A program made the translations under genes and the position numbers. 64,000 nt of DNA from Henriciella sp. (lineage in GTDB: Bacteria > Pseudomonadota > Alphaproteobacteria > Caulobacterales > Hyphomonadaceae). Where the stretch lies: assembly GCA_017642885.1 (NCBI GenBank), contig JAEPOM010000015.1, positions 13,059-77,058 on the forward strand. Reading direction: 5' to 3'. The number at the start of each line of letters is the position of its first letter. Position 1 is the stretch's first letter. Positions 36,633-46,982 of the stretch are shown one piece after another. The notes below the pieces were generated by a model. It was not told where the DNA came from, did not search any database, and worked only from the letters and a program-made list of their open reading frames with translations.

Positions 36633-38126
36633 CTATGCGGTTAGAGTTTGCCGTAGAGCGTGCTGCCAACCATCAATCAGCTTCGTGCGAACATCTGGCG
36701 CCATTTTCGGCTCAAACCGTTGCCCTGGAGCTGTCCGATTGCCCCACTCCGCCTCACTGATCCAGCCAAGCCGTATTCCCGCCAGTGCGGCGGCGCCGAG
36801 CGCCGTCATTTCCATGAAGTCTGGACGCTCGACCGGGCGATCGCAAATGTCCGAAATGAACTGCATCAACCAGTCATTGGCCGCCATGCCGCCATCCACA
36901 CGCAGTACCGAGACATCGGCGCCATCTGCGGAAAAGGCCGTTAGCAAATCATTCGTCTGGTACGCCGCTGACTCCAGACCGGCGCGAACCAGGTGCGCCG
37001 CGCTCGCGGCCCGGGTGAGCCCGGTCACGCTGCCCCGCGCATTCGCATCCCAATGCGGCGCGCCAAGTCCGGTAAAAGCTGGAACGATGTAGACGCCAGC
37101 ATTATCCGGCAGGTCCGCGGCCATTCGTTCGCTCTGCGCAGCATCCGCAATTAGCCCCAACTCGTCGCGCAGCCATTGGATCACGGTGCCTGCATTGAAG
37201 ATCGCACCCTCAAGCGCGTAGGCCGTCCCGCCACCTTCGATTCCGTACCCCAGCGTACCAAGTAGACGGTTTTCTGACGCTGGCACGTCCTGACCTGTGT
37301 TGGCGACCAGGAAAGCGCCCGTACCGTAGGTTATTTTCGCAGTTTGCGGCGCGAGGCATCCCTGCCCGACCAGAGCCGCCTGCTGATCGCCAATCGCCGA
37401 CAGGATCGGGATGGCGCGCCCAAACAAGGCAGGATCCGTCTCGCCAAAATGCGCACCGCTGGGCTTCACATCGGGCAAAAGCGCTTCCGGCACATTCAAC
37501 ATGTTCAGCATCTCGCTCGACCAATCTGTGTTGGCATCCACGCTCAAAGGATAGAGCAGCGTACGAGACGCGTTGGTCAGGTCAGTTGCGTGGACGCCGC
37601 CGCCAGTCAGCCGCCAGATGAGATAGGAATCCACGGTTCCGAACGCGAGTTCGCTTGCTTCCGCGCGCGCTCGGGCGCCTTCGACATGATCGAGCAGCCA
37701 GGCAACCTTGGTGCCTGAAAAGTATGGATCGATCAGCAGTCCTGTTTCCTGTTGAACCTTCGACTCAAACCCCTTGGCTTTCAATGCCTCGCAGCGATCT
37801 GCCGTCCTTCTATCTTGCCAGATAATCGCTGGCGCGATCGGTGCCGATGTTTGTCGGTCCCAGACAAGCGTGGTTTCGCGTTGGTTGGTGATCCCGATCG
37901 CGGCGATGCGATCCGCACCGCCAATTTCTGAGATCACCTTGTGGCAGACTTGGAGGGTCTTTTGCCAAATCTCTTCGCCGTCCTGCTCAACCCAACCATC
38001 GTCTGGATAGGTCAGCGGCACCTCTGCTTGCGCGAGACTTACAGGCGCGAACGATCGATCGAATGCAATCGCGCGCGTCGAAGTTGTACCTTCATCAATC
38101 ACCAGAATGAGGTCAGGTTCCGCCAT
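36633..38126 (-). CDS. glpK: Glycerol kinase
   Basis: IDEGTTSTRA, GITNQRETT, DPYFSGTK, TDLTNASRT, GDQQAAL, TYGTG, LRVDGGM; ggagg RBS before 38126. Confidence 0.97.
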   Translation of the reverse strand: MAEPDLILVIDEGTTSTRAIAFDRSFAPVSLAQAEVPLTYPDDGWVEQDGEEIWQKTLQVCHKVISEIGGADRIAAIGITNQRETTLVWDRQTSAPIAPAIIWQDRRTADRCEALKAKGFESKVQQETGLLIDPYFSGTKVAWLLDHVEGARARAEASELAFGTVDSYLIWRLTGGGVHATDLTNASRTLLYPLSVDANTDWSSEMLNMLNVPEALLPDVKPSGAHFGETDPALFGRAIPILSAIGDQQAALVGQGCLAPQTAKITYGTGAFLVANTGQDVPASENRLLGTLGYGIEGGGTAYALEGAIFNAGTVIQWLRDELGLIADAAQSERMAADLPDNAGVYIVPAFTGLGAPHWDANARGSVTGLTRAASAAHLVRAGLESAAYQTNDLLTAFSADGADVSVLRVDGGMAANDWLMQFISDICDRPVERPDFMEMTALGAAALAGIRLGWISEAEWGNRTAPGQRFEPKMAPDVRTKLIDGWQHALRQTLTA

Positions 38127-38200
38127 AAAATCCTCCGCAGCTTTCATCGGCGCTGATCGCGGCCGATCACTACTTGATCATCGCTTCGCTCGTCTCAGCG

Positions 38201-38308
38201 TGTTCGTTTTCGAACAAACTCTTGAGCGCTGTCAACCACTTCAGGCTCCGTATCTCAATCGCAAACAGGAATATTCGTATTCGCACTCACTTTTATCGTT
38301 TACGAACA
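38201..38308. promoter_or_regulatory. GlpR-like operators in the glpK/glpD divergent promoter
   Basis: TGTTCG-TTTT-CGAACA (38201-38216, arms perfectly complementary), TATTCG-TATT-CGCACT (38272-87), TTATCG-TTTA-CGAACA (38293-308); resembles the E. coli GlpR TGTTCG half-site. Confidence 0.7.
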
Positions 38309-38353
38309 TAGCAGGCAAGCTTAGGACGTCTGTGATGAAATAGGATTCACGCC

Positions 38354-39856
38354 TTGTACGACATCCTGATTATTGGCGGCGGCATCAACGGAGCTGGCAT
38401 TGCACGCGACGCAGCAGGCCGCGGCCTTAAAGTACTATTGTGCGAAAAGGACGACCTCGCCTCACACACATCCTCCGCGAGCACCAAGCTCATCCATGGC
38501 GGATTACGTTATCTCGAACACTATGACTTCGCGCTGGTTCGGAAGGCCCTGATGGAGCGCGAGGTGTTGCTGAAAGCAGCCCCCCACATCATTTGGCCTC
38601 TTCGATTCGTACTGCCTCATCACAAAGATCTCCGCCCCTCCTGGCTGATACGGCTGGGCCTGTTTCTCTATGATCATCTTGGCGGGCGTAAGCTCCTTCC
38701 CGCAACGAAGACTCGCAAAAGATCGAACAGCGACGTCTTTGCGCCATTAAAACAGGAATTCACCAAAGGTTTCGAGTATTCCGATTGCTGGGTAGAGGAT
38801 GCGCGTCTGGTCGTCCTGAACGCTATGGACGCTGCAGATCGCGGCGCGACCATAATGACGCGGACAGAATGCCTTGGAGTTGAGCGAAGGGACGACGGAT
38901 GGGTCGCAACCTTGCGCGTTGACGGGAAACCCGATCTGACGGTCGAAGCCAGAACCGTCATTAACGCTGCCGGCCCATGGGTCGATCACATCGCCGGGGT
39001 CGCTGGCGTGAAATCCAGCGATGCCCCCCAGGTTCGGCTCGTAAAAGGCAGTCATATCATTGTCCCCAAACTGTTCGACGATGAGCGCTGCTTCATCTTC
39101 CAATCCGGCGACGGTCGAATTGTGTTCGCGATCCCTTATGAGGACAATCGCTTCACGTTGATTGGAACAACCGACCTCGCCTTTGAAGGCGACCTCAATC
39201 ATGTCAAAGCGTCGCCTGACGAAATCGACTATTTGTGCAGTCTCGCGAACGAATACTTCGACCAGCAAATCACTGCCGATGATGTCGTTTCCACCTATTC
39301 GGGCGTGCGTCCCTTGTTCGAAGATCAGGCTGAGAATGCATCATCTGTGACGCGTGATTACGTCCTCAAACTCCAAGGCGGGGATGACGCTTCATTCTTG
39401 TCCGTCATTGGCGGCAAGATCACCACCTATCGAAAACTCGCCGAAGACGCACTGAAAGCGCTCAAGCCCTGCCTACCTCAACAAGGGAGCGCCTGGACGG
39501 AGCACTCGCCACTGCCTGGCGGAGATATCCCTAATGCTGACTTCGCGACATTCGAAAACCATTGCGCTGAGGTCTATGATTGGATGGATCGAAAAACGCG
39601 ACATCGCCTCGCCCGAACCTATGGCACGCGAATTCATGCGATCCTGAATGGATGCAAATCACCAACTGATCTCGGCGAACACTTTGGCGGGGGACTTTAT
39701 CAGAAGGAGGTTGATTACCTCATCGAGCAAGAATTTGCTCGAACTCCGGAAGACATCATAGAGCGTCGAACCAAGCTTGGCTTGCACATGAGCCCGGAAG
39801 ACATCAACACGTTTCAGGCCCGGCTCAAAACCCGGCTTGCAGCCCAAACGCAATGA
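38354..39856 (+). CDS. glpD: Aerobic glycerol-3-phosphate dehydrogenase
   Basis: IIGGGINGAGIARDAAGRG, TSSASTKLIHGGLRYLE, VKGSHI, GTTD, SGVRPL, GGKITTYR. Confidence 0.97.
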   Translation: MYDILIIGGGINGAGIARDAAGRGLKVLLCEKDDLASHTSSASTKLIHGGLRYLEHYDFALVRKALMEREVLLKAAPHIIWPLRFVLPHHKDLRPSWLIRLGLFLYDHLGGRKLLPATKTRKRSNSDVFAPLKQEFTKGFEYSDCWVEDARLVVLNAMDAADRGATIMTRTECLGVERRDDGWVATLRVDGKPDLTVEARTVINAAGPWVDHIAGVAGVKSSDAPQVRLVKGSHIIVPKLFDDERCFIFQSGDGRIVFAIPYEDNRFTLIGTTDLAFEGDLNHVKASPDEIDYLCSLANEYFDQQITADDVVSTYSGVRPLFEDQAENASSVTRDYVLKLQGGDDASFLSVIGGKITTYRKLAEDALKALKPCLPQQGSAWTEHSPLPGGDIPNADFATFENHCAEVYDWMDRKTRHRLARTYGTRIHAILNGCKSPTDLGEHFGGGLYQKEVDYLIEQEFARTPEDIIERRTKLGLHMSPEDINTFQARLKTRLAAQTQ

Positions 39857-39976
39857 TCAGATTTGCGAGGATCTTAGCGCTCGCATCCGCCTGAAATTCG
39901 CATAAGACATACACAAGGCCGAATAACAGAATACACGGCACCAGCATTACAGAGGTTCACGGGAGGACCTTCCAGC

Positions 39977-41533
39977 ATGGACGCACTACAAGTCGGCATC
40001 TTCTTTTTCATTACGGCCGTGATTGGTTTTCTAACCTATCTCAACTGTCGAAACGCACCGTCTGGAGATCGTGGATCGGACCACGACTACTTCCTCGCGA
40101 ATGGCGGCCTCAGCTGGTATTTCGTAGCGGGCTCCATCACGCTGACCAATCTTTCAACGGATCAGCTGGTCGGTATGAACGGAAACCAGATGTTGCTGCT
40201 CGCCTGGTGGGAACTGGCGGCCGTGGTAGGCCTACTCATCCTGGCTTACGTGTTCATCCCGATCTATTACCGCAACAATTGCACCACGACGACGGAACTG
40301 CTTCAGCGCAAGTATGACAACAAGCATATTCGGGCCGTCATCTCCGTTCTGTTCCTACTTGGAAACCTGTTTATTTTCCTGCCAGCTATTCTGTACGGCG
40401 GCTCGCTATTTCTGAAATCCACAACGGGTGCAGACTTTTCAGGCCTGCTTGGCGAACGATTGTTCGTGGGCACCGCAGTGGAAGTCGACTCCACCATTTT
40501 CGTGATGGCCATCACCTTCGCCATCGTTGGCGCCCTATACGCCATTCTCGGCGGCCTCCGCGCCGTGGCAGTGTCGGATACGTATAGCGGGGTTCTCATT
40601 CTCTCACTCGCAGTCTTGGTTGTGATCCTGGCCCTGAACGCCATTGGTTGGGATTTCTCGGGCGTGCCAGCAGAGCGCATGAATATGTTCATCGGCAGCA
40701 AGCTGGAGGATGGGAGCGAGACCCCTATTCCCTGGCATACGCTGCTCACCGGTATGATCTTCATTCAGATCTTCTGGAGCACCAATCAAACCATCACCCA
40801 GCGCGCGATGGCCTCGCCGAGCGTTGAGGAAGCCCGCAAAGGCATTCTCGCTGCCGCTGGCATTCGTTTGCTCATCGTACCCGTAATCGCAGTGGTGCCC
40901 GGTGTCGTCGCATACAAGTTGTATGGTGATGTCGGCGACGCAGCTTATGGAATGATTGTGGGAGACATCCTTCCGCCAATTCTCTCAGGCGCCTTTGCAG
41001 CAGCGATTGCGGCGGCGGTTCTGACAACCTTTAACTCCATTCTGAACGCATCCGCAGCGCTCTACGTCTGTGACTTCCATGAGTCCTACATCGACGAAGC
41101 CCGAGACGTCCCGAAGCTCAGCATGTATGTCTCGGTTGCGATGACGGTTCTTGCGATTGCGCTGGTCCCAGTTTTTGCTTCACAGGAAAGCATCATCAAT
41201 ACCGTGCAGCAGCTTTATGGCTTGCTCTCGATGCCAATCCTGTCCGCGTTCATTGTTGGTCTGGCGTTTCGAAATGTCAGCGCATGGGCGGCCATTCTTG
41301 GCGTCGTCACCGGGGTTGTGGCTTACGCGGTCTTCAGCTTCAAACTGTACCGCTATGTCGGAATTTCGCCGAGTGAAGGCTTGGGCGCATCGCTCGCAAG
41401 CGTGCACTATATCCACTACATGTTTGTGACTTTGGTTGTCAGCATCGGCACCGCGCTGCTGACCAACCTGATCATTTTTGGCCGTAATGCCGAACTCACG
41501 ATCGGACGGTCTGCGCCGGCAGCCGCTCAATAG
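39977..41533 (+). CDS. Sodium:solute symporter (SSS, YidK-like sugar subgroup)
   Basis: DYFLANGGL, SITLTNLSTDQLVGMNG, GGLRAVAVSD, NQTITQR; 13-14 TM helices. Confidence 0.92.
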   Translation: MDALQVGIFFFITAVIGFLTYLNCRNAPSGDRGSDHDYFLANGGLSWYFVAGSITLTNLSTDQLVGMNGNQMLLLAWWELAAVVGLLILAYVFIPIYYRNNCTTTTELLQRKYDNKHIRAVISVLFLLGNLFIFLPAILYGGSLFLKSTTGADFSGLLGERLFVGTAVEVDSTIFVMAITFAIVGALYAILGGLRAVAVSDTYSGVLILSLAVLVVILALNAIGWDFSGVPAERMNMFIGSKLEDGSETPIPWHTLLTGMIFIQIFWSTNQTITQRAMASPSVEEARKGILAAAGIRLLIVPVIAVVPGVVAYKLYGDVGDAAYGMIVGDILPPILSGAFAAAIAAAVLTTFNSILNASAALYVCDFHESYIDEARDVPKLSMYVSVAMTVLAIALVPVFASQESIINTVQQLYGLLSMPILSAFIVGLAFRNVSAWAAILGVVTGVVAYAVFSFKLYRYVGISPSEGLGASLASVHYIHYMFVTLVVSIGTALLTNLIIFGRNAELTIGRSAPAAAQ

Positions 41534-41539
41534 GACGGT

Positions 41540-42331
41540 CTAGGCATCATCCGCGACGTGGAGCTCCATCTCAGCCTCCCGGATGGCTTGCATAAAGGCC
41601 TCCGGAGGCGCCTGATCGGTGTAAAGGTGGTCGATGTCCGAATAGTCGCCCAGCCGCACCATGGCGCGGCGCCCAAACTTGGCTGCATCAGCAACCAGGA
41701 AGACAGTACGTGAGTTTTGAATAATCGCCTGGGCCGAGCGGATCTCCTGATAGTCGAAGTCGAGAAGCGTGCCATCTTCATCGATACCGCTGATGCCGAT
41801 CACACCGATATCGAGCCGGAATTGTTTCAGGAACTCAGTCGTCGCTTCACCAACAATGCCGCCATCTGACTGGCGAACAAAACCGCCAGCAATCATAACA
41901 TCCGACCCATCGGTCTCGCGCATCATGTTGGCGATGTTGATATTGTTGGTGACGATGCGCAGATCGTTGCGGCCGACCAGTTCTGCCGCGATCGCCTCCG
42001 TCGTGGTTCCAATGTTCAGGAATAAAGACGCGCCATCGGGAATACGTTTGGCGACCATGCGAGCGATCTTGCGCTTGCCGTCCATACCCTCTTGCAGGCG
42101 ATCCTGATAAGGCTGGTTGTAGGCATTGCCGATGCGCCCGGCACCACCATGGAACCGTTCGATCAAGTCTAGCTCACATAGCAGATTGATGTCCCGGCGA
42201 ATGGTTTGCGGAGTCACCCCAAAATGGCGCACGAGCTGCTCGGTTGCAACATAGCCCTGCGAACGGATCAGCTCGAGGATTTCCTTTTGTCGCCCCGGAA
42301 GATTGGATACATCAGCGTCGCTCATTTCCAC
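41540..42331 (-). CDS. glpR: DeoR-family repressor GlpR
   Basis: RQKEILELIR, FGVTPQTIRRDINLL, FHGGA, LFLNIGTTTEAIA, ADAAKFGR. Confidence 0.92.
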   Translation of the reverse strand: MEMSDADVSNLPGRQKEILELIRSQGYVATEQLVRHFGVTPQTIRRDINLLCELDLIERFHGGAGRIGNAYNQPYQDRLQEGMDGKRKIARMVAKRIPDGASLFLNIGTTTEAIAAELVGRNDLRIVTNNINIANMMRETDGSDVMIAGGFVRQSDGGIVGEATTEFLKQFRLDIGVIGISGIDEDGTLLDFDYQEIRSAQAIIQNSRTVFLVADAAKFGRRAMVRLGDYSDIDHLYTDQAPPEAFMQAIREAEMELHVADDA

Positions 42332-42398
42332 CTACTTTCTTCGGTTCCGCGTTGGCGAGATGCATGGTCAAGTTCCGTGTCACACGCCGAACCGCAGA

Positions 42399-44540
42399 TC
42401 AAATCGCCTCAAAATGATAAATCAAACAAGTCTCTGGATGCAGCAAAGGCACTTGCAATCCGACATGCTCTAGCGCCTCACCCGGCAAAACAGTCCCCTC
42501 CTCGTTGAGGCTCAACGCCTCTAGAACCGAGGGGCGTGACACCGACCGGACTTTTTTCGGCCAGGCGATTTTGGTGCGATAAGACTTGCTGCGATCCAGA
42601 CCTGGAACATAGATTCGCCCTGGCAACGTCTCGTTATGCCCTGTCACATTGCACCAGGAGACCAAGGCCTCTGACTGGTCGGGCGCCACGACCCCCACGG
42701 CATTGACGTGTCCTGGCGTATCCAGTCGATAATAGTCGCCGCCATGGATGAGGGCGCGATGCTGTTTATGCAGAGCGATACCCGCTTTCAGGATGTTGAG
42801 ATTGTCCTGGCTCTCTGACAACAGGTTGAGCTCCATCCCCATGTGTCCGAACAGGGCCGTCGCGACGCGCATCTCCATCTTGAGACGGCGCCCGGTAATG
42901 TGACAGGTTTCCGGCCCGACATGCGCGCCCATAATTTCGAGCGGGAAGAAATGCGATGCCCCGCGCTGGATGCTCTGACGATCAAGCGCGTCGTTGCTAT
43001 CGGATGTCCAGATCCGGTCCGTGCGCTGAAGAATGCCATAATCGGCCCTGCCGCCGCCGGATGAGCAGCTTTCAATCTCCAGATCAGGATGCGCTGTGCG
43101 TACGCGGTCGATCAACGCATATAGCGCGCGTGTCTGCCGACTAATCGCTGGGCGGCCTCGACTGCCAGGGTGATGAACATCCCGGTTCATGTCCCATTTC
43201 ACGTAGGAGATATCATGGTCACTCAGCAATTTATGCAGGTGTACAAAAAGGTACTCACTCACCTCTGGTCGCGTGAGATCGAGCACGTACTGCCCCCGAA
43301 AGGGCACTTGTTCGACCCCCTCGGCTTGGAGGATCCAGTCCGGGTGCTTGCGAAACAGCTCGCTGTCCGGGTTGACCATTTCAGGCTCGAACCACAGCCC
43401 GAACTCCATGCCCAGCGACGTGACGTGTTTGATCAGCGGCCCTAACCCCTCCGGGTAGACATCCTCAGATGGCCACCAATCCCCGAGCCCGGCTTTGTCG
43501 TTTCGGCGAGCCCCGAACCAGCCATCATCAAGAATGTAGCGCTCCGCACCCACTTCCGCTGCTTTTTCAGCCAGCTTGAAAAGCTTGTCGGAAGCATGGT
43601 CGAAATAGACAGCTTCCCAGGTATTATAATGGATCGGACGCGGTTTGCGCTGAATACGATCATCCATAATCGTGTGCTTGAGATGGTGATGAAACTTACG
43701 TGAGAGCGCGCTGAATCCTCGGCTGGCAAACCCAGCAAAGAGGCACGGCGTCCGGTAGGTTTCGCCTGGCGCTAGAGACAGCTCCCCCGGGAAAAAATAT
43801 TCCCCCATCTGAACGAACGCCCGGCCATCACTCAGTCGATCAACGCGAACGCGGCTGTTTCCGCTCCAGCCGAGATGAAATGCGAAACATGGCCCGGCCT
43901 GCTCGTTCGTTTCGGCAGCGCCCAGGACGAGGCCCGGGAATTTGTCGTGGCTCGTGCGACCGCTCTTGTTCTCGCGAACGTAGCTGCCGAGAAATGGCGC
44001 GACTTCTTCGAGCTGAAATTCTCCCGACCAACGCCCGGTAAAACCAAACAGGTGCTTGGCCCGCGGATCCAGCGGTAAATTCCCGGACGCACACCAGTCA
44101 ATCGCGAGACCGTCGGTTCCGATATTCTCAATCTCGGTCTGACAGGTCATCACGCTGCTGCCGGGATCGACGCCAATCAGATGCGTCGCTCGCACTTTCG
44201 TCGTCTTATCTTCGCAGACAATTTCGACCCGGTTTGTGTCTGACTGGCGCACCTCTGTTACGCGGAAAAAGCTCGCCCAGGCGGTTCCATTCCGGTGCGC
44301 AGAAAAACCTGGGGAGCCGGAGACTCCGGCTCCGGTTTCGTTCAGGAGCGAGCTCTCGACTTCGGCATCAGCGCTTCCGGGTGCGTGCTGACGAGACGTC
44401 ATGCGCAAGAGCAGCGCAGGATCCGACTGGACGAGCTTCTCCCCCCAGTACAGGATGCATGGCCGGGCACCGACAGCACAGTTCAGAACAAGGCTGGTAT
44501 TGCCAGCTGTCAGCGTGACAAAGTCAGATGACTCACTCAT
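42399..44540 (-). CDS. GH36 alpha-galactosidase, cytoplasmic
   Basis: YNTWEAVYFD, LDDGWFG, FGLWFEPEMV, YVKWDMNR, IESCSSGGGRAD, WTSDSND; no signal peptide; start at MSESSDF. Confidence 0.95.
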   Translation of the reverse strand: MSESSDFVTLTAGNTSLVLNCAVGARPCILYWGEKLVQSDPALLLRMTSRQHAPGSADAEVESSLLNETGAGVSGSPGFSAHRNGTAWASFFRVTEVRQSDTNRVEIVCEDKTTKVRATHLIGVDPGSSVMTCQTEIENIGTDGLAIDWCASGNLPLDPRAKHLFGFTGRWSGEFQLEEVAPFLGSYVRENKSGRTSHDKFPGLVLGAAETNEQAGPCFAFHLGWSGNSRVRVDRLSDGRAFVQMGEYFFPGELSLAPGETYRTPCLFAGFASRGFSALSRKFHHHLKHTIMDDRIQRKPRPIHYNTWEAVYFDHASDKLFKLAEKAAEVGAERYILDDGWFGARRNDKAGLGDWWPSEDVYPEGLGPLIKHVTSLGMEFGLWFEPEMVNPDSELFRKHPDWILQAEGVEQVPFRGQYVLDLTRPEVSEYLFVHLHKLLSDHDISYVKWDMNRDVHHPGSRGRPAISRQTRALYALIDRVRTAHPDLEIESCSSGGGRADYGILQRTDRIWTSDSNDALDRQSIQRGASHFFPLEIMGAHVGPETCHITGRRLKMEMRVATALFGHMGMELNLLSESQDNLNILKAGIALHKQHRALIHGGDYYRLDTPGHVNAVGVVAPDQSEALVSWCNVTGHNETLPGRIYVPGLDRSKSYRTKIAWPKKVRSVSRPSVLEALSLNEEGTVLPGEALEHVGLQVPLLHPETCLIYHFEAI

Positions 44541-44621
44541 GTTGCCCTCTTCCAAATCGCAAGCGCTTTCCTCTTCGAGACATTCTGCAAAGAACACAAA
44601 TGTTGGAAATAGGAAATACTA

Positions 44622-44637
44622 TTGTCGTATTCGAAAA
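44622..44637. promoter_or_regulatory. GlpR-like operator in the alpha-galactosidase/galT divergent promoter
   Basis: TTGTCG-TATT-CGAAAA, same CG-W4-CG geometry as the glpK/glpD sites. Confidence 0.55.
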
Positions 44638-44838
44638 TATGAAGCGGAAAATATACACTCGCCTGATAGCAGGTTACGCTTTTGCAGCGCCTCATGCTTC
44701 CCGTCTCACTCAGCCATACGTTGGCAGAAGTTGCAGCAATCCCTCGATCGGGCATAGCCATTTCCGGTGTGATCGAATACGAACGCTCTAAGGAGCCAAT
44801 TACCAAATCTGGCTCAGACACAGGCCGGAAAAGACACG

Positions 44839-45921
44839 ATGGAAGACGAGCGGACAATTCTTCAACGCACCGCTTCGGGCCGGGACGTTCACCGTCGCCA
44901 TCATCAGAAAAGCGATGGCCGCGATCTCTTTCTGTACGGTTTCAATCGCCATGAAGGCGCCCGAGTCCGCGGTGAAGATCTTCAGACGGTCCAGGGGTCG
45001 GAGCTGCGCCGTCACCCACTTCGTGGCGACTGGTCAATTTATGCCGCGGGCCGTCAAAACCGAACCTTTAAGCCGGGCGCCTCAGCCAATCCACTTGCGC
45101 CAAGTGTGCATGGTGCGCCGCTGACCGAGATCCCATTCGAAACTTTCGAACTGGCGGTGTTCTCAAATCGCTTCCCCAGCCTCTTTCCTGGCGCGACCGA
45201 GCCGGCTCGTTCGGATTTGGACATGCACGCGGCGCGCGGCGCCTGCGAGGTAATCGTCTATTCACCCGAACCAGTCGGATCACTTGCAACGCTGAGCCAG
45301 GATAGACGCCGCCTCCTGCTCGCGGCCTGGATCGATCGCTATCAAGCGATGTTCGAGGCCGGCTGCGCTTTCGTGCTTCCCTTTGAGAATCGCGGCGATG
45401 AAGTTGGTGTGACGCTGCACCATCCGCATGGACAGATCTACGGATTCCCCATCGTTCCGTCGCCGCAGCAGATCGCGTCGGATGCGTTCGAGCAAGGGTA
45501 TGATCTCGCCGCCGATGTGAAAATCTGGGGTGACGCGTATCGCATCGCAGAAGCGGGAGGGCTCGCGTCCTATTCACCGCGCTTTGCACGCTTCCCCTAC
45601 GAAGTCTGGATTTCCGCCTTAGAACCAGTGTCCGGGCCCTGGGCCTTCAATGAAGAGCAATCCGACGGCTTTGCGCACCTACTTGGCGACACGGTGAGGC
45701 GATACGATGCGTTTTTCGGACGCGAAACGCCCTGCATGTTGAGCCTGCACGCCGCGCCTTATGGCCGTGATGGAAAGTTCCAGTTCACCGCTCAATTCTA
45801 CCCGCTCTTGCGAGCGCCAGATCGCGTGAAATATCTCGCGTCCGTGGAACAGGCGACCGGCGTGTTCACCGTCGACGTCATGCCAAGACAGGCCGCCGAC
45901 GCCTTGCGAGGTGCGGTATGA
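44839..45921 (+). CDS. galT: Galactose-1-phosphate uridylyltransferase
   Basis: [57 protein letters not shown] (HxHxQ). Confidence 0.93.
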
Positions 45922-46982
45922 GCCTCTCCGCTCAATTCGTTGCCGCGTATGGCCGCGCGCCGACCGCGACCGCATCCGTTCCTGGACGAGTCAATCTGAT
46001 CGGAGAACATACAGACTATAATGGCGGCGCCGTTCTGCCCGCCGCGATCGAGCGTAAAATTGACATTGCCCTCGCCCCCAACGGCTCATCCACGACATCC
46101 ATTCAGTCTACGCGTTTCAACGGCAGAATTGAACGCCCCACAGGCGACCCGAAACGCAATGAATGGACCGATTATGCGATGGGCGCGCTTTGGAAGGCCG
46201 ATGCCCTTGGCTGGCTGTCAGGCGGCGTCGATCTGCTCATAGAGAGCAACGTACCAGACGGCGCCGGGGTGTCTTCGTCAGCTGCGCTGATCACGGCGAT
46301 TCTGCGCGCCGCGGCGGAGACTGCAAACGTCAAAGCTGATCCGGTCGATGTCGCGAAGCATGCCCGCGCCGTCGAGAATGAGTATATCGGCATGCCGTGC
46401 GGAATCATGGACCAATTGGCGGTCGGCTTGGCCAGTCCCGGCTCTGCTCTCGCCCTAAATACGCAAGATCTCAGCTTTGAAGTGATCGATATTCCTGCCG
46501 GCTGGAGCTTTGCCGTCATTCATTCTGGCGTTCGCCGCGAGCTCGCTGACGGCCGCTACAAGGCGCGCTTCGAAGAGTGTCAGAGCGCAGCCGACGCATT
46601 GGAAACGGACACGCTCTGCCTCCTGGATTCCGCGCAACAAGACGCGATGGAGGCACTGCCGGACCCGCTCAAAAAGCGCGCGCGACACGTCACGAGTGAA
46701 CACTTGCGAACGGTACAGGCCACCGCCGCGATGAAGGCGTCCGATCTCGAAGCATTCGCGCGCTTAATGAATGAAAGCCACCGCTCTTACGCTGAGGATT
46801 TCGAAGCTTCGACCCCAGAAATCGATGCGCTTATCGCCGACGCTGTGGACAGCGGAGCACGCGGAGCTCGTCTGACAGGTGGCGGCTTTGGGGGCTGCAT
46901 TGTCGTGTTGTTGGAAAGCCAACTGGAAGCCGACTGGATCGGTGCATTTCTGGACCGTCATCCCGGCACCTGGCAGGTTTGA
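45918..46982 (+). CDS. galK: Galactokinase
   Basis: PGRVNLIGEHTDYNGG, PDGAGVSSSAA, CGIMDQ, GARLTGGGFGGC. Confidence 0.96.
   Translation: MSLSAQFVAAYGRAPTATASVPGRVNLIGEHTDYNGGAVLPAAIERKIDIALAPNGSSTTSIQSTRFNGRIERPTGDPKRNEWTDYAMGALWKADALGWLSGGVDLLIESNVPDGAGVSSSAALITAILRAAAETANVKADPVDVAKHARAVENEYIGMPCGIMDQLAVGLASPGSALALNTQDLSFEVIDIPAGWSFAVIHSGVRRELADGRYKARFEECQSAADALETDTLCLLDSAQQDAMEALPDPLKKRARHVTSEHLRTVQATAAMKASDLEAFARLMNESHRSYAEDFEASTPEIDALIADAVDSGARGARLTGGGFGGCIVVLLESQLEADWIGAFLDRHPGTWQV

Follow-up and report, generated by a model that had tools for sequence, protein, structure and literature searches.

One of the closest described counterparts of the locus analysed here, seven genes at positions 36633-46982 of a 64,000-nt stretch of DNA from Henriciella sp., a marine bacterium associated with algae (Hyphomonadaceae; assembly GCA_017642885.1, contig JAEPOM010000015.1), is the glp regulon of Escherichia coli, in which GlpR controls glpFK and glpD and the inducer is sn-glycerol-3-phosphate (G3P). 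We refer to the whole stretch as the window, and all coordinates are window positions unless another contig is named. The two systems share a DeoR-family GlpR, GlpK and GlpD, similar operator half-sites, and a divergent glpK/glpD pair with multiple operators between the genes. They differ in that the Henriciella genome is without GlpF, that glpR lies co-oriented behind a gene for a GH36 alpha-galactosidase, and that the predicted Henriciella regulon also spans this alpha-galactosidase, a Na+ sugar symporter, galT and galK. We propose, with a probability of about 0.65, that the locus is a single GlpR-controlled unit for the uptake and full catabolism of an alpha-galactosyl-glycerol glycoside, with floridoside and/or isofloridoside as the most likely substrate.

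Systems for melibiose and raffinose (E. coli melAB and rafABD; Geobacillus AgaA/AgaB; Ruminococcus gnavus AgaSK) likewise import their substrate and then cleave it with a cytoplasmic retaining alpha-galactosidase, and the Henriciella enzyme has the same three-domain GH36 architecture and catalytic Asp pair. However, those systems use GPH/MFS or ABC transporters and AraC-, LacI- or MelR-type regulators, whereas the Henriciella locus has an SLC5/SSS symporter and GlpR. It also integrates glycerol-catabolic genes and is without sucrose or fructose genes, and its GH36 is only ~40% identical to characterised enzymes. Glucosylglycerol degradation is a form of heteroside (compatible-solute) catabolism, and the E. 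coli lac system is presumed to have beta-galactosylglycerol as its natural substrate. These share the concept of importing a small glycosyl-glycerol, splitting it and using both products, but the sugar, the anomer and the enzyme families differ. A further likeness is to the TonB-dependent carbohydrate scavenging loci of Alteromonadales, Xanthomonadales and Caulobacterales, in which a TonB-dependent receptor (TBDT) occurs with Trp-halogenase-like and SapC genes. This likeness is seen in relatives, with, directly upstream of the symporter, a TBDT in congeners and Erythrobacteraceae and the whole cassette of TBDT, Trp-halogenase-like and SapC genes in Alteromonas and Thalassotalea, whereas the window locus has no TBDT.

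All parts of the Henriciella locus are thus from known families, and its logic is that of other loci for glycoside uptake, cleavage and dual catabolism. The literature that we searched describes no bacterial locus for the catabolism of floridoside or galactosylglycerol, none that joins GH36 with glp and gal genes, and no GlpR-controlled alpha-galactosidase, in agreement with a preliminary description of this DNA whose author was aware of no characterised bacterial locus of such architecture; the GapMind/fitness paper holds no relevant entry. In red algae, floridoside and isofloridoside make up major pools of photosynthate and osmolyte, and both have been reported from other microalgae and from coral symbionts as well. 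Galactosylglycerols also form the head-groups of the membrane lipids that are most abundant in phototrophs.

Gene content of the locus

The seven adjoining genes, identified from a listing of open reading frames (ORFs) and from profile searches, are glpK, glpD, an SLC5/SSS symporter gene, a DeoR/GlpR-family regulator gene, a GH36 gene, galT and galK. The preliminary description had given the same identities and positions, with a Na+ symporter behind glpD and with glpR 67 nt downstream of the cytoplasmic GH36 and co-oriented with it, and the profile searches bear this out throughout, with only the start of the GH36 gene being moved.

The GH36 gene lies on the minus strand at 42399..44540, with its ORF open to 44597. 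We consider the ATG at 44540 a more likely start than 44597; translation from this ATG gives a product of 713 amino acids with the N-terminus MSESSDF, which matches the length of nearly all homologues. No signal peptide was found on this N-terminus, and the enzyme is therefore predicted to be cytoplasmic. It carries the GH36N, Melibiase and GH36C domains, all scoring over their cut-offs (PF16875, 137.9 bits; PF02065, 401.7 bits; PF16874, 43 bits). When the protein was aligned with AgaA (4FNR), both catalytic aspartates of AgaA, D478 and D548, were identical ('vkwDmnr' and 'wtsDsnda'); we take D478, in the KWD motif, to be the nucleophile and D548, in the SDxxDA motif, to be the acid/base. The enzyme thus appears catalytically intact, and if it is both intact and cytoplasmic, the glycoside must enter the cell whole. 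It shares a subgroup with the raffinose/melibiose enzymes AgaA, AgaB and AgaSK, at roughly 40% identity over the catalytic part. A soil GH36 enzyme is reported to make isofloridoside through reverse hydrolysis, so that the chemistry is feasible within the family (PMC8509150).

The candidate importer is the SLC5/SSS Na+:solute symporter encoded on the plus strand at 39977..41533, which matches the Pfam SSF profile PF00474 at 122.8 bits (cut-off 22.8) and TIGR00813 at 198.5 bits (cut-off 184); the YidK-type equivalog NF007790 gave 338.6 bits (cut-off 401). Its best match among solved structures is the Na+/galactose transporter vSGLT of Vibrio parahaemolyticus (PDB 3DH4, 2XQ2; E 1e-34), in which galactose is liganded by Q69, E88, N260, K294 and Q428 and stacks on Tyr263 (PMC8037263). 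It can be seen from the alignment that Q69, E88 and Q428 are identical in the symporter (Q63, E79 and Q411) and that K294 and Y263 are conservatively replaced (R297 and F266), while the position of N260 falls in an insert or gap; the residues at the ligand positions are invariant across nine orthologues. Overall identity to vSGLT is nevertheless low, and the genomic context of the Henriciella symporter points to a glycoside rather than to a monosaccharide.

The glycerol half is represented by glpK, for glycerol kinase, on the minus strand at 36633..38147 (TIGR01311, 617.3 bits; cut-off 590.35) and glpD, for FAD-dependent sn-glycerol-3-phosphate dehydrogenase, on the plus strand at 38354..39856 (NF008899, 743.1 bits; cut-off 360). 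The symporter gene follows glpD after 120 nt and is probably co-transcribed with it. The galactose half consists of galT, for a HIT-type galactose-1-phosphate uridylyltransferase (44839..45921, plus strand), and galK, for galactokinase (45918..46982, plus strand; TIGR00131, 259.2 bits against a cut-off of 226.65), which overlap by 4 nt. GalT scores over the cut-off with the Pfam N-domain GalP_UDP_transf (71 bits; cut-off 22) and below it with TIGR00209 (70.4 bits; cut-off 102.1) and NF008724 (99 bits; cut-off 448). Judged by its sequence it is a divergent family member that keeps the HPH motif, at residues 193-195. The sole regulator gene of the locus, on the minus strand at 41540..42331, encodes a protein with HTH_DeoR and DeoRC domains.

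A tblastn search of the genome found single copies of glpK, glpD, glpR, GH36, galT and galK, all of them inside the locus. A gene for GalE presumably lies outside it, where there are two epimerase-family candidates (contigs C24 and C71) with 49% and 45% identity to a protein of that family from a relative. The preliminary description had noted that a glycerol facilitator is absent, and this can be extended from the locus to the genome, as no match to the MIP family, including GlpF, was found anywhere in the 100%-complete 3.66 Mb assembly. As had also been stated, no LacI/GalR regulator and no sucrose or fructose gene belongs to the locus, and none adjoins it, its flanks being putA and cobT.

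Putative GlpR-type operators

The E. coli GlpR operator has a consensus of the type TGTTCG-N4-CGAACA. Five putative operators of this type lie in the two divergent promoter regions of the locus, and we scored them with a position weight matrix built from 18 species. Between glpK and glpD, operator 1 (CGTGTTCGTTTTCGAACAAA, 38199..38218) is a palindrome, GTGTTCGTTTTCGAACAA, 52-71 nt upstream of the glpK start, with a matrix score of 25.0 that ranks third in the genome. Operators 2 and 3 (AATATTCGTATTCGCACTCA and TTTTATCGTTTACGAACATA; 38270..38310, with starts at 38270 and 38291) lie just upstream of glpD and score 18.7 and 25.9, the latter being the best match of the genome. Between the GH36 gene and galT, operator 4 (TATTGTCGTATTCGAAAATA, 44620..44639) is 80-99 nt upstream of the GH36 ATG (score 25.6, genome rank 2), and operator 5 (TGTGATCGAATACGAACGCT, 44768..44787) is 52-71 nt upstream of galT (score 21.7, genome rank 5).

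Sites of the locus therefore account for four of the top five matches in the 3.66 Mb genome; the match of rank 4 (C71:43685) is inside an ORF, and we took it as chance. A simpler count points the same way, since the motif TCGWWWWCGAA occurs six times in the window where 0.85 occurrences are expected, a number that none of 100 shuffles reached. Genome-wide the motif has ~64 matches, and four distinct sites are found within ~450 bp of the two intergenic regions. There is also an exact match to the operator core (TCGATAACGAA) elsewhere in the window, at 29583-29593, some 100 nt upstream of an IS1111-type transposase ORF (29684-30829), and this is probably a chance occurrence.

The putative operators have been conserved among congeners, where protein identity is only 65-80%. 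Operators 1, 2 and 3 are kept in congeners and operator 4 in most of them, and the core of operator 5, TGATCGAATACGAA, is kept in 16 of 17. Taken together, the position, rank and conservation of these sites support co-regulation of the glp promoters and of the gal/GH36 promoters by GlpR. The sole galactose pathway of the cell would then sit behind GlpR-type operators, an arrangement that makes sense if galactose usually arrives bound to glycerol.

The locus in congeners and in other families

The nearest named relatives are metagenome-assembled genomes (MAGs) of Henriciella and Hyphomonadaceae and 'Hyphomonas sp. Mor2'. The layout of the locus is kept in congeners at 65-95% protein identity. 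Among 24 congeners, the GH36 orthologue and galT were found in the same 16 species, glpD in 17 and the symporter in 14, each of which also has GH36 (14/14); six of the 24 are without GH36, symporter, glpD and galT. Within the genus, GH36 and galTK were found without glp genes only in one fragmented assembly (G015).

The seven genes are not always gained or lost as one block, and we rejected this possibility on the evidence of two congeners that hold the glp genes alone. One of these (G005) has a plain putA-glpK<>glpD-glpR module. In the other (G006), the first 26 codons of the symporter gene and the last 27 codons of the GH36 gene are left beside glpK<>glpD and glpR (locus L122, G006:C7 9267-9344 and 10193-10273); such remnants indicate clean deletion of the genes for transport and cleavage. 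Elsewhere in the same genome (L027) there is a distinct GH36-galT-galK cluster that is 37-40% identical. We also noted that in many congeners the gene for a 985-residue TBDT lies exactly between glpD and the symporter gene (L015 3406-6363; L014, L021, L031, L035-L037, L046 and L047). No orthologue of this receptor was found in the genome from which the window comes.

To extend the comparison, 80 loci with symporter orthologues of 57-99% identity were fetched with 10-kb flanks, and the counts that follow use the 53 that have at least 6 kb on each side. GH36 is present in 45 of these neighbourhoods, glpD or glpK in 36, all of which also have GH36, and galT or galK in 37. Outside the genus the corresponding numbers among 41 neighbourhoods are 33, 24 and 26. 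The symporter is found with GH36 but without a glp gene at 9 of the 53 loci, and with a glp gene but without GH36 at none, which argues against its being a glycerol carrier. GH36 copies at least 45% identical to that of the window are linked to glp genes at 39 of 50 loci, and more distant copies at one of nine.

At least six gene orders join the symporter orthologues, GH36 and glpD or glpK in Hyphomonadaceae, Erythrobacteraceae, other Caulobacterales and Alteromonadales. In Erythrobacteraceae, galK-galT-glpD-GH36 are on one strand and face (AraC-TBDT-GH27-)SSS, where SSS denotes the symporter gene, and glpK is elsewhere in the genome. A MAG of the Caulobacterales has GH36-galT-galK-glpD-TBDT-SSS, all co-directional. 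Alteromonas has glpD-glpR <> glpK-TBDT-(Trp-halogenase-like)-SapC-SSS-GH36, with a GlpR operator before glpK, and Hirschia has SSS-GH42-AraC-GH36-glpD-glpK, while another genus of the same order has GH36 <> SSS-glpK. That glp genes have stayed linked to GH36 despite repeated rearrangement and with differing regulators would be difficult to account for if the substrate did not yield glycerol. As the arrangement is kept in congeners and the linkage recurs in unrelated orders of other families and classes, we consider it more than chance. A survey of synteny had been proposed in the preliminary description, with separation of the glp and gal genes in relatives, and a lack of co-induction, as findings that would count against the idea; the linkage proves instead to be recurrent, and both divergent promoter regions have putative operators.

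Some of these loci have further genes of their own. In one Erythrobacter genome (L064 8745-9974), the genes for the TBDT and the symporter are separated by that of a 409-residue GH27 alpha-galactosidase, and the regulator is of the AraC family where the window locus has GlpR; larger alpha-galactosides may thus be trimmed in the periplasm of this lineage. In Alteromonas and Thalassotalea (L100 7678-9971; L106 11516-13859), the genes between TBDT and symporter encode a tryptophan-halogenase-like flavoprotein and a SapC-family protein.

A conjugative element adjoins the locus on its left, but congeners also have putA and cobT at the flanks, and we therefore rejected membership of the locus in this element. 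Scans of 29.5-47.5 kb with Rfam and for tRNA genes gave no match, and a scan of 36.4-47.3 kb for promoter and terminator consensus sequences gave no enrichment over shuffles. Near-identical DNA is present in public runs labelled as algae and macroalgae metagenome and in RNA-Seq runs. In the RNA-Seq contigs the depth is ~16 over glpK and 5-15 over the GH36 gene, compared with 1-3 over the flanking putA, and we conclude that the locus is transcribed and nothing further. A separate stretch of the window, at 31058-32445, has a contig depth of 55-100 in four RNA-Seq runs, which is 5-50 times that of neighbouring genes. It overlaps a shortened tyrosine-integrase ORF on the minus strand (31452-32402; 316 residues against a profile of 413 positions), and no Rfam family and no tRNA or tmRNA was found in it.

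Proposed pathway and alternative explanations

The comparative and regulatory evidence supports the galactosylglycerol substrate put forward in the preliminary description, a substrate that we, too, infer from what the genes encode. In the pathway that we propose, the SLC5 symporter would import the intact glycoside with Na+, and in several congeners the inserted TBDT would add uptake across the outer membrane. Cleavage in the cytoplasm by the retaining GH36 would then yield alpha-D-galactose and glycerol. The galactose would be passed by GalK and GalT to the Leloir pathway, with GalE presumably encoded elsewhere; as a retaining enzyme delivers the alpha anomer, which is the one that GalK accepts, the cell would need no mutarotase. 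GlpK and GlpD would turn the glycerol into dihydroxyacetone phosphate. The GlpR repressor is predicted to occupy the operators in both divergent promoter regions (glpK<>glpD and GH36<>galT), and G3P formed from the glycerol half would free it, by analogy with E. coli GlpR, so that one signal may induce both halves of the pathway. The operon boundaries in this scheme are predicted ones.

A potential explanation that keeps the same enzymes but changes the substrate is that the main substrates are derived from galactolipids and not from the floridoside of red algae. Digalactosylglycerol (alpha-Gal-1,6-beta-Gal-glycerol) from deacylated digalactosyldiacylglycerol (DGDG) would be imported and lose its alpha-galactose to GH36, a separate beta-galactosidase would cleave the remaining beta-galactosylglycerol, and the glp and gal products would handle what is released. 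To our knowledge DGDG is universal in phytoplankton, and the TBDTs and the GH27 gene of relatives would suit larger substrates. Hirschia has a GH42 beta-galactosidase gene between those for the symporter and GH36, and the Henriciella genome does have one orphan gene for a cytoplasmic LacZ-type GH2 of 1045 residues, with the full LacZ domain set and no permease beside it. However, there is no beta-galactosidase gene in the locus and no GH42, GH35 or GH27 gene in the genome, no GlpR-type operator lies upstream of the orphan lacZ, and no lipase or esterase gene is linked to the locus here, and we consider this explanation unlikely. The orphan lacZ (G000 contig C13:39409-42546; L124 7409-10546) has no sugar regulator adjacent to it either, and it is flanked on one side by an ImuB/DnaE2 mutagenesis cassette and on the other by genes for a glyoxylate-shunt regulator, malate synthase and a member of the isocitrate-lyase family.

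Two further explanations do without a substrate that contains glycerol, or without a glycoside carrier in the locus. The locus might be two independent modules that happen to be neighbours, an ordinary glycerol regulon (glpK, glpD and glpR) and an alpha-galactoside module (symporter, GH36, galT and galK) for melibiose, raffinose or galactinol. The subgroup to which GH36 belongs, the two congeners with the glp module alone and the symporter orthologues that have GH36 or galTK and no glp gene are all consistent with this. The genes are nevertheless interleaved here, with the symporter gene behind glpD and glpR behind GH36; putative GlpR-type operators are conserved at the GH36 and galTK promoters and there is no second regulator; the linkage survives at least six rearranged architectures, including that of the Erythrobacteraceae, which use an AraC-family regulator and still have glpD between GH36 and galT; and in the genus, with the exception of the fragmented assembly, GH36 and galTK were not found without glp. 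This possibility therefore seems to us slighter still. Alternatively, the symporter may carry a monomer, the substrate of GH36 then entering by an unlinked route. The monomer could be free galactose, the solute of vSGLT, or glycerol, for which the genome has no GlpF. The closest solved relative of the symporter is indeed a Na+/galactose transporter, several of whose sugar ligands are conserved, the symporter gene follows glpD in a genome without GlpF, and some orthologues adjoin galTK only. Against this, a cytoplasmic GH36 requires a glycoside importer, and none of the architectures includes another transporter gene. The 53 neighbourhoods include none in which the symporter has glp genes but no GH36 beside it, which argues against glycerol, and in the genus the symporter occurs only where GH36 does. 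We regard a monomer carrier as improbable.

The proposal of a GlpR-controlled galactosylglycerol unit has to be set against several findings that count against it. Two congeners (G003 and G010) keep glpKD, glpR, GH36 and galTK and have no symporter orthologue anywhere in their genomes, and the symporter must therefore be dispensable or replaceable; no substitute transporter was found beside the locus in either, where the neighbours are cobalamin, iron-type ABC, NUDIX and AAA genes. With glpK<>glpD-glpR standing alone in G005 and G006, the glp part must also be able to serve as an ordinary glycerol regulon. There are symporter orthologues that adjoin galTK or GH36 only, so that the family may carry galactosides in general, and the GH27, GH42 or TBDT genes of some relatives hint at larger or beta-linked substrates. 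The regulator scores just under the cut-off of the GlpR equivalog NF008154/PRK10906 (313.7 bits against 331), and G3P as its inducer is assumed by analogy. The RNA evidence consists of assembler depth in uncontrolled samples and is too crude to speak to co-induction. Finally, the substrate, as predicted from gene content, may be floridoside, isofloridoside or galactolipid-derived digalactosylglycerol.

More broadly, a clade of SLC5 symporters and one of cytoplasmic GH36 enzymes may together represent a widespread and undescribed pathway for algal galactosylglycerols (floridoside, isofloridoside) in marine Alpha- and Gammaproteobacteria, with the Leloir pathway of Henriciella placed under a G3P-sensing GlpR and induced by the glycerol half of the substrate; we hold the chances for and against this wider claim to be about even. 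If the function proposed for the locus is confirmed, the SLC5 and GH36 clades linked to glpD/glpK would be markers with which to trace carbon flux in alga-associated and planktonic bacteria, and a large uncharacterised SLC5 subfamily would have a substrate. The locus would likewise provide enzymes for making or degrading floridoside-type compounds, and Henriciella would offer an example of a Leloir pathway that is governed through a signal from the aglycone, G3P.

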